Source of the DNA: Deltaproteobacteria bacterium
Lineage (GTDB): Bacteria; Desulfobacterota; DSM-4660; Desulfatiglandales; B25-G16
Direction: 5' to 3'
DNA: 44,305 bases
Assembly: GCA_018400255.1 (NCBI GenBank)
Contig: JAGYMO010000341.1
Coordinates: 1 to 44,305, forward strand
Positions within the stretch are counted from its first letter, which is position 1, and every line of letters begins with the position of its first letter. Shown here in pieces: positions 36,023 to 37,003 of this stretch. The notes under the pieces were generated by a model. That model saw only the letters and a program-made list of their open reading frames with translations, ran no database searches and had not been told where the DNA came from. A program made the position numbers and the translations under genes.

Positions 36023-36105
36023 GCAACAATTAATCGTTGCTTTTGTGGGATACATAATCAGGCTAAAAATTCAGCTTGTAAAAAGACAGTATAAAGGAAT
36101 TTTTT

Positions 36106-36840
36106 GTGAACAAAAAAATAAACAATCTCCTTGTATCTCTCATTTGTTTAATAACAGCTCCCTTTTCTTCTCATGTAGAAGCAGAGATATTGGATCATAA
36201 TATAAAAAACATTGCAGATGGCTTTTTTTTGACTGCTACGTTTTCTTTGGGCTGATTTTGGGGACCTGATTCCCGGTTCGGGGCTATCGATGGTGTTATC
36301 AGGACACGAGTGGGATATACAGGGGGAGATAAAAAGAACCCTACGTATTACAACTTAGGTGATCACTCTGAGGCTCTGCAAATTGATTATAATCCGACTA
36401 AAATTTCTTATGAAAGATTGCTGACTATTTTTTGGAAAACCCATGACCCTGGCATAAGACCAATGTCAAGGCAATATTGGCCTGCAATTTTTTATCATAA
36501 TGAGGAGCAAGAAAGGCTGGCCTTTAAAGCAAAAAAATTTGAAGAGATTAAAGCAAAAGGGGAAATTTATACTAAAATATTTCCTTTAACTAGATTTTAC
36601 TTAGCGGAAAACTATCACCAAAAATATATGGTCAGGCATCATACCGAAATTATTGAGCAACTTGAAGCAATATACCCTTCTGCCGAAGAATTTATAAATT
36701 CAACACTTGTAGCCCGCATAAATGCCTATCTCGGCGGCTTCATGGCGCTTGAAGAGCTTCAATCACAGATACGTATTTATGGCCTTTCAAAACAAAGAAC
36801 AGAGAATTTGCTTCGCGCCATAAGCAAGGCCAAAAAATGA
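36106..36840 (+). CDS. msrA: Peptide-methionine (S)-S-oxide reductase MsrA, candidate selenoprotein (TGA 36253-36255 read as Sec), with predicted signal peptide
   Basis: The computed ORF (36310-36840) starts at 'VGYTGG', downstream of the active site. The same frame upstream reads 'ATFSLG-TGA-FWGPDSRFGAIDGVIRTR', so TGA replaces the Cys of the MsrA 'GCFWG' motif. The frame stays open back to GTG 36106, 6 nt after 'aaaggaa', giving 'NKKINNLLVSLICLITAPFSSHVEA'. Confidence 0.65.
36265..36303 (+). promoter_or_regulatory. Candidate bacterial SECIS-like stem-loop downstream of the in-frame UGA
   Basis: Outer stem cctgat (36265-36270) / atcagg (36298-36303). Inner hairpin (u)cccg-guu-cggg(g) at 36271-36283, with its apical GUU loop about 20 nt after the UGA. 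Confidence 0.35.
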
Positions 36841-36851
36841 GCTATATTTAA

Positions 36852-36889
36852 CCCAGATTATGCAGCGGATGGCTACTGCATAATCTGGG
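36852..36889. repeat. Palindromic hairpin element, family 3, copy 1 (downstream of msrA)
   Basis: Perfect 14-bp stem cccagattatgcag/ctgcataatctggg with a 10-nt loop. Shares the 'ttatgcag...ctgcataatct' core with 40049-40088. No T-run follows. Confidence 0.8.
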
Positions 36890-37003
36890 ATAAACATATG
36901 TCACGATATCTAGAAAGATACTGCATGTCTGAGGCTTTAGAAAACATCATATCAATTGTCCATCCTGACCTAAAAAAGTAACAAAAATTAGAAAACAGCA
37001 ACC

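Follow-up and report, generated by a model that had tools for sequence, protein, structure and literature searches.

An in-frame TGA as a probable selenocysteine codon in the msrA gene of an uncultured Desulfobacterota lineage

Is the in-frame TGA in the msrA gene (peptide-methionine (S)-S-oxide reductase) of an uncultured Desulfobacterota bacterium the scar of a broken gene, or is it the codon for a catalytic selenocysteine (Sec)? The gene lies in a 44,305-bp NCBI contig (38% GC) from a metagenome-assembled genome (MAG) of an AT-rich lineage, and this whole stretch of DNA is called the window here. A mechanical list of open reading frames (ORFs) divides the msrA region into two pieces, 36106-36255 (49 aa) and 36310-36840 (176 aa, beginning with VGYTGG). 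On the forward strand, one reading frame extends from the GTG at 36106 to the TGA at 36838-36840, and its sole in-frame interruption is the TGA at 36253-36255. The translation reads VNKKINNLLVSLICLITAPFSSHVEAEILDHNIKNIADGFFLTATFSLG up to that TGA and FWGPDSRFGAIDGVIRTRVGYTGG beyond it (context, ...LTATFSLG-U-FWGPDSRFG...), and no other TGA in the window bridges two open stretches of genuine coding frame. A sequence-only reading of the window had placed the TGA at the catalytic Cys position of MsrA and had stated that the ORF starting at VGYTGG lacks the active site. Both statements agree with our results: the TGA aligns with Cys16 in the U16C crystal forms of CoMsrA, the selenoprotein MsrA of Clostridium (Alkaliphilus) oremlandii OhILAs, and the 176-aa ORF starts at GTG 36310, downstream of the catalytic residue U50. 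On comparative sequence evidence, we consider it very probable that TGA 36253-36255 is a selenocysteine codon and that 36106-36840 is a complete Sec-containing MsrA of the CoMsrA type rather than a truncated gene. The gene features in question are the following.

36106-36840, forward strand: predicted complete msrA coding sequence (244 codons, the 50th for Sec), ending in the stop TGA at 36838-36840 (from the frame, profiles, alignment and active-site residues).
36253-36255, forward strand: UGA as putative selenocysteine codon, catalytic U50 in the motif G-U-F-W-G (from the codon comparison and the CoMsrA alignment).
36310-36840, forward strand: 176-aa ORF of gene callers, an artefact of annotation whose GTG start encodes Val69 of the full-length protein (from the ORF list and the database cluster).

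With Cys placed at the TGA, the translated protein matched Pfam PF01625 (PMSR) from residue 43 onward with 137.1 bits (cutoff, 23.7) and TIGR00401 (msrA) with 122.5 bits (cutoff, 108.1). Its best PDB matches in a phmmer search were the U16C forms of CoMsrA (4LWJ, 4LWK, 4LWM, 4U66, 7C13, and 4W8C; E value, 1.7e-56), and window residues 43-241 aligned with chain residues 9-207 without a gap over 199 residues. Over the whole alignment the identity to CoMsrA was 44%, with 51% for the catalytic domain and 27% for the helical domain. In its native form CoMsrA is a selenoprotein of the 1-Cys type, with Sec at position 16 and no Cys (PMC4479559, PMC4333827). The incorporation of selenium into this enzyme has been shown experimentally (PMC4479559), and the N-terminal strand that bears its GCFWG motif contributes to the active site (PMC4333827). 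When the published list of residues forming the oxygen and methyl pockets (PMC4333827) was applied to the window protein, all of them were present (G49-U50-F51-W52-G53, Y81, E89, Q123, Y124, H171, and Y174), the last six corresponding to Y47, E55, Q89, Y90, H137, and Y140 of CoMsrA. The window protein contained no Cys after the signal peptide and was thus without a resolving Cys. The C-terminal helical domain of CoMsrA (residues 145-209) corresponds to Pfam PF20939, MsrA_helical. Many homologues are recorded with this family; the window protein did not reach E <= 0.01 with it, and the helical-domain call rests on the gap-free phmmer alignment. Given the homology to CoMsrA, the active-site residues and the evidence for a Sec codon, we place the gene as a new member in a selenoprotein family that is already known and validated by experiment. 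Separately, a weak partial match was seen between window residues 43-108 and profile positions 147-199 of NCBIfam NF041383 ("VPGUxxT family thioredoxin-like (seleno)protein, type 2"), with 28.7 bits, far below the cutoff of 275, which hints that the NF041383 family contains an MsrA-like segment.

The state of the catalytic codon was compared across relatives, labelled L001-L211, that came from assemblies, GTDB species-representative genomes and metagenomes. The scan of the GTDB species representatives yielded 80 loci with 44-57% identity, none of them from the source MAG, and 76 of these were readable at the catalytic codon: 74 carried TGA, one TGC, one TGT, and none TGG. The TGA loci were distributed over at least 7 phyla and came from Desulfobacterota, Chloroflexota (Dehalococcoidia and Anaerolineae), Nitrospirota, Syntrophomonadaceae, Spirochaetes, Actinobacteria, and Calditrichaceae. 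Metagenomes were scanned with an unbiased DNA pattern for G-x-F-W-G-P-D-x-x-F-G with TGN at the first x, and the 120 matches comprised 100 TGA, 15 TGT, 5 TGC, and no TGG. The in-frame ETATFALG motif before the TGA was kept across the GTDB and metagenome relatives, and altogether 172 distinct TGA sequences were collected, with coding conservation on both sides of the TGA. Database homologues with Cys at the position of the TGA numbered 58, and related DNA loci with TGY there numbered 21. With 83-97% of the sampled loci carrying it, the Sec codon is the majority state of the CoMsrA-type clade in environmental anaerobes. The closest relatives behaved in the same way: four independent SRA assemblies of 95%-identical relatives (L001-L004) retained the TGA and the frame, while L206, which is 73% identical, had an ATG start and a 3-codon in-frame indel upstream and retained both the TGA and the hairpin codons, with a signal-peptide region that had diverged yet stayed in frame. 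No frameshifts or extra stops were seen upstream of the TGA in the close relatives. One deltaproteobacterial MAG contig (CAVZNY010000007.1) carried two copies of the Sec-type gene, L043 and L061, which lie 133 kb apart and are identical around the TGA.

Decoding of a bacterial UGA as Sec depends on a selenocysteine insertion sequence (SECIS) hairpin directly downstream, and the sequence-only reading had placed a small candidate hairpin after this TGA. The two structures of the window are these.

36268-36288, forward strand: SECIS core hairpin (from energies, family pairing, covariation, the comparison of TGA with Cys forms, and synonymous sites).
36265-36303, forward strand: outer helix CCUGAU 36265-36270 / AUCAGG 36298-36303, lineage-specific, enclosing the SECIS hairpin (from folding).

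Across the family, with columns numbered from the U of the UGA as 1, the TGA forms share a hairpin 12 nt past the UGA with the consensus GACUCCCG-GUU-CGGGAGUC and G24 and U25 in the loop; in the consensus of the TGA-containing sequences, UGAUUCUGGGGnCCnGACUCCCGGUUCGGGAGUC, columns 16-23 pair with columns 27-34 around the loop G24-U25-U26. This explicitly named helix was tested, with controls, on 73 distinct GTDB sequences. In the named helix 77% of the cells were paired, compared with at most 62% in slid registers, and the covariation score was 0.231, compared with 0.117 ± 0.011 in shuffles, none of 500 of which reached it. Changes on both sides were found at three pairs: 18-32 (CG, UA, and AU), 19-31 (UA and GC), and 23-27 (GC in 48 and AU in 14). 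The last of these links the change between Arg CGG and Gln CAG to which of the synonymous Phe codons comes next, UUC or UUU, respectively. The in-register stem had a median of 5 bp in the TGA forms (n = 172), with 66% having at least 5, whereas the Cys forms, a small set of 21 sequences mostly from another sub-clade, had a median of 1 bp and none had 5. Similarly, the third-position entropy at stem columns 21, 24, and 30 was 0.24, 0.13, and 0.56 bit, respectively, in the TGA forms versus about 1.8-1.9 bit in the Cys forms and at flanking four-fold sites. The loop G24 was found in 169 of the 172 TGA sequences, and U25 was invariant in the 73-sequence alignment. These patterns show selection at the RNA level that is tied to the TGA.

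In the window, the upper stem is formed by 36271-36275 and 36279-36283 (U-G, C-G, C-G, C-G, and G-C) around the apical loop GUU at 36276-36278, followed by a 2-nt bulge at 36284-36285 and a lower stem of 3 bp (36268-36270 / 36286-36288). The position given by the sequence-only reading was accurate, with CCCG at 36272-36275, GUU at 36276-36278, and CGGG at 36279-36282 nested in the outer helix. A published model of the bacterial SECIS (bSECIS) allows a loop of 3-9 nt, an upper stem of 4-16 bp and a G in the first two loop positions (PMC13188914, Fig. 2), at 16-37 nt from the UGA and with a minimum free energy (MFE) of <= -7.5 kcal/mol (PMC13188914). The geometry of the window hairpin falls within this model (3-nt loop GUU, 5-bp upper stem, and 20-nt spacing), and the apical loop reads GGUUC if the closing pair opens. 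Together with the covariation in the TGA forms and the absence of the hairpin from the Cys forms, this agrees with the earlier proposal of a SECIS element. Its energy was -5.3 to -6.8 kcal/mol alone and -10.9 kcal/mol with the outer helix, and the verdict against the -7.5 threshold depends on the span that is folded. The outer helix (pairs 36265-36270 / 36298-36303) had an ensemble probability of 0.53-0.56 and was also present in L206, but it is not conserved across the family. The window codons of the core (UCC, CGG, UUC, and GGG) are rare in the window, making up 14%, 6.6%, 16%, and 18% of their synonymous families, respectively, and synonymous resampling of the hairpin gave P = 0.038 for energy and P = 0.02 for the stem. 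The synonymous identity between the window and L206 was 8/8 in the SECIS codons versus 93/131 elsewhere, which is suggestive but not significant.

Several results weigh against the selenocysteine interpretation, in addition to the small size and different sub-clade of the Cys set. Without the outer helix the window hairpin stays above the -7.5 threshold, it is among the weaker ones of the family with 4 in-register pairs, and the probability of its core pairs was only about 0.24 in the unconstrained ensemble. The MFE of the 60 nt from 36253 to 36312 was no better than that of shuffled sequence (z = +1.15), and RNAalifold on the 73 sequences missed the helix and gave a weak, different consensus at -1.04 kcal/mol. 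Moreover, the 44-kb window holds no part of the Sec machinery: it has no tRNA, no sel gene was present among the 30 annotated neighbours, and no selenium-metabolism gene among the annotated genes. Since the single-sequence MFE is no better than that of shuffles, the support for the hairpin is comparative and not thermodynamic, and the fold of this one sequence would not have pointed to it. A fold constrained to the core pairs had -12.3 kcal/mol versus -12.6 for the free MFE, and the unconstrained MFE fold of L206 (-13.9 kcal/mol) includes the consensus upper hairpin; because of these two results, we take the hairpin and the outer helix to be real.

Among the alternatives, a selenium-free reading of the UGA, either by a near-cognate tRNA for Trp or Cys or with UGA as a sense codon, is very unlikely. 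It would fit with several database proteins of the family that show Trp at the catalytic position: among 120 protein-database hits, 21 had Trp and 1 had Arg there. However, the apparent third class with a catalytic Trp was mostly an artefact and was rejected, as four of the five "Trp" proteins that were checked are TGA in the DNA and had been called under a code with UGA as Trp. These false GWFWGPD entries stand on short contigs (L207 995-1711, L208 1501-2184, L209 135-992, and L210 113-769; P0008, P0025, P0003, and P0034), and the second in-frame stop in L209 turned out to be the gene's own TGA stop, which the wrong code had translated, giving a false C-terminal extension. The codon at L005 6160-6162 is a genuine TGG and the L211 gene (769-1470) has a genuine AGA before FWG. 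Each is one base from TGA, both loci still have the SECIS-type hairpin, and the L005 protein is 71% identical to that of the TGA-bearing L016. In the metagenome matches TGG was absent, and AGA was undetectable among the 120 because the pattern fixed the first base as T. The L005 and L211 variants are probably rare inactive alleles or read errors and not a third class. In addition, Trp could not act as the nucleophile, and decoding by SelB requires just such a hairpin as is conserved here, with a G-U loop at the canonical distance. TGA is an ordinary stop in the window: it ends 4 of the 36 ORFs, msrA included, and no second gene is split by it, which excludes a reassigned genetic code.

A pseudogene, in which a nonsense mutation inactivated msrA and left a 176-aa remnant or no product at all, is more improbable still. 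Gene callers and public annotation do treat msrA as truncated, and the window shows no Sec machinery. The sequence-only reading had expected such an annotation, and the public entries of the close-relative cluster indeed are all 176-184 aa forms named peptide-methionine (S)-S-oxide reductase (e.g., MBN1226885.1). Against decay stand the same TGA in 172 distinct sequences of many phyla with coding conserved on both sides, the synonymous sites past the TGA that are frozen only in the TGA forms, and the upstream part of L206, which changes in the manner of a signal peptide, its indel in frame and its start kept. A 176-aa remnant would also be without the catalytic residue. The earlier argument that a chance nonsense mutation was unlikely is thus strengthened by the retention of TGA in 74/76 GTDB loci and 100/120 metagenome hits with the frame kept, and the orthologues carry TGA and show no decay, down to the L206 indel that preserves the frame.

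There is only a slim chance that the locus makes two products, an exported 49-residue peptide and an independently started, MsrA-like fragment of 176 residues whose role is not catalytic. The two ORFs are present in the mechanical list and translation could start at GTG 36310, but Val69, which this GTG encodes, is an invariant internal residue of RTRVGY in all homologues and no conserved start. Coding sequence is highly conserved from the TGA up to 36310 (FWGPDSRFGAIDGVIRTR), and in CoMsrA the N-terminal strand with GCFWG belongs to the active site (PMC4333827). A sequencing or assembly error that turned TGC or TGT into TGA can practically be dismissed, for although the codon is a single base from a Cys codon in a MAG contig, the identical TGA occurs in the four independent SRA assemblies L001-L004, the close relatives from NCBI, JGI, ENA, and Logan were all called as 176-184 aa forms, and SECIS-type codon usage around the TGA would not come from an error. 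Overall, the shared TGA with conserved flanks and the in-frame indel of L206 form a pattern for which pseudogene, assembly error and two ORFs cannot account.

With UGA 36253-36255 decoded as Sec, the following mechanism is proposed. The hairpin would present G24 and U25 (36276-36277) to SelB carrying Sec-tRNA(Sec) while the ribosome stands on the UGA; Sec insertion and the presence of SelA, SelB, SelC, and SelD in the genome are inferred. The selenolate of U50 would attack the sulfoxide of Met-S-O, with Y81, E89, and Y124 holding the oxygen and F51, W52, H171, and Y174 holding the methyl group. The reaction would leave Met and a selenenic acid, and regeneration of the latter would call for an external thiol reductant. 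The mature enzyme would likely reside outside the cytoplasm by means of its N-terminal signal peptide, which is given here.

36106-36183, forward strand: predicted secretory (Sec-type) signal peptide MNKKINNLLVSLICLITAPFSSHVEA, with probable cleavage after VEA (from a heuristic reading).

The N-terminus is rich in Lys and is followed by a hydrophobic core of 13 residues (Kyte-Doolittle maximum, 2.84); the residues at -3/-1 are small. Strongly hydrophobic N-terminal segments were present in 121 of the 163 readable TGA loci (about 75%), 33 of the 121 with a lipobox Cys (e.g., L007, L016, and L018), and twin-arginine motifs such as NRRSFMKLLG occurred in several other TGA loci (L038, L048, L129, and L165), both kinds of motif standing where the window protein has its signal peptide. 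Ahead of the catalytic domain there is usually a conserved IPPIDxxAP linker. In L044 and L047, the in-frame sequence just upstream of the IPPID linker resembles the end of an HMA-like domain (...TVTFDPTEIKVEKMVEALKRAGTYRGTA) and not a signal peptide; this may represent either a fusion or a preceding gene that shares the frame. From these N-terminal sequences, the enzyme is likely to be exported and to act outside the cytoplasm. We see an even chance that the full picture holds, namely, an exported, periplasmic or membrane-tethered 1-Sec MsrA that repairs oxidized Met of the cell envelope in strict anaerobes with an extracytoplasmic reductant, the form combining Sec with export being the common state in the clade. 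For CoMsrA, glutaredoxin serves as the reductant and thioredoxin does not (PMC4479559), and because glutaredoxin, the only known reductant of this enzyme type, is cytoplasmic, an exported form would need a reductant outside the cytoplasm. We met no literature account of an exported Sec-containing MsrA, though no search was aimed at it.

The neighbours within 3.5 kb of the Sec-type msrA were surveyed at 171 loci, with functions judged by eye from the sequence (examples, L022 3730-4873, L020 888-1626, and L078 4375-5872). An MsrB with a lipoprotein signal was found at 14 loci, mostly just downstream and on the same strand, an OmpR-type response regulator at 15, a sensor kinase at 12, and a molybdopterin-oxidoreductase-like, possibly MsrP-like, protein at 4. 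No recurrent gene for thioredoxin, DsbD, or CcdA was found within this distance at the 171 loci, and the window itself has no gene for thioredoxin, DsbD, CcdA, MsrB, or a two-component system, next to msrA or elsewhere. The surroundings of msrA consist of ordinary diderm housekeeping genes: LptE, MltA, MurJ, LeuRS, a riboflavin operon, SHMT, and FabF/FabG, followed by ltaE-msrA-glyQ-glyS. In a search for tRNA-Sec, 60 related loci gave only tRNA-Glu and tRNA-Met. Two further features flank the msrA gene.

36094-36098, forward strand: Shine-Dalgarno-like AAGGA, 7 nt 5' of the GTG start (seen in the sequence).
36838-36903, forward strand: inverted repeat from the msrA stop codon on, a probable transcript-end hairpin as judged from its structure (from a repeat search).

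The start of msrA at GTG 36106 is fixed because L206 has an ATG at the equivalent codon. The inverted repeat has 28-nt arms with 86% complementarity, a perfect 14-bp core (CCCAGATTATGCAG / CTGCATAATCTGGG) and a 10-nt loop, and it was not called in a terminator scan because no T-run follows it. Read-through of the gene's own stop TGA, beyond which 46 codons are open, was rejected, as the extension is not conserved in L206. Upstream, the palindrome GCAACAATTAATCGTTGC at 36023-36040 begins one base past the ltaE stop and is followed by TTTTG; it is possibly a small terminator between ltaE and msrA.

Reading the UGA as Sec would give back a whole enzyme, active site and signal peptide included, and would correct the deposited 176-184 aa entries. 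Some database entries have a false catalytic Trp that comes from the UGA = Trp code. It would add a Sec-dependent enzyme for the repair of Met sulfoxide to an uncultured Desulfobacterota lineage, with the Sec-decoding trait that this implies, and the export signals of most Sec forms raise the question of how a 1-Sec MsrA would regain its reduced form outside the cytoplasm. The understanding of selenoproteins is not changed by these results, since the family, its structure and its catalytic advantage have already been published.

Sec-containing MsrA was already known in anaerobes, as the sequence-only reading had said, and the closest characterized case is CoMsrA. Like it, the window protein has Sec at G-U/C-FWG, an extra C-terminal helical domain and the 1-Cys type. 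CoMsrA is 20-fold more active than its own Cys form and requires the helical domain (PMC4479559, PMC4333827). It differs in being a cytoplasmic protein of 209 residues from a Gram-positive host that starts 15 residues before the Sec, whereas in the window protein, which comes from the MAG of a diderm member of Desulfobacterota, 49 residues precede the Sec, the predicted signal peptide included. A class of bacterial MsrA with Sec in "GUFWG/H" has been described in a 2026 review (PMC13188914), and as early as 2006 Zhang et al. listed a Sec-containing MsrA in deltaproteobacteria, for example in Syntrophobacter fumaroxidans (PMC1794560, Table 3). These cases share with the window gene the phylum-level group and the active-site motif. 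The Syntrophobacter-related genomes L021, L024, L029, and L030 have the same TGA and hairpin as the window, but the window organism is AT-rich (38% GC) and has a weaker upper hairpin and the extra outer helix. With the general bSECIS consensus the hairpin shares a stem-loop inside the coding region directly 3' of the UGA and a small G-U apical loop, while its sequence is family-specific and made of the codons for D-S/A-R/Q-F-G-S. Rfam at the gathering threshold gave zero matches in the window, with no Rfam family covering the msrA hairpin. In Escherichia coli fdhF, too, the minimal SECIS lies close behind the UGA, beginning 11 nt past it with G23/U24 exposed. The MsrA of Chlamydomonas reinhardtii likewise has Sec in place of the catalytic Cys, but that system is eukaryotic, with its SECIS in the 3' untranslated region and with SBP2/eEFSec, and no homology at the RNA level is expected. 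Finally, exported Msr systems based on Cys are known from Neisseria (PilB/MsrAB) and from Streptococcus pneumoniae (MsrAB2 with CcdA/Etrx). The window msrA resembles them in the repair of Met sulfoxide outside the cytoplasm, its export being predicted, whereas PilB/MsrAB and MsrAB2 use Cys and fused or dedicated thioredoxin-like partners.

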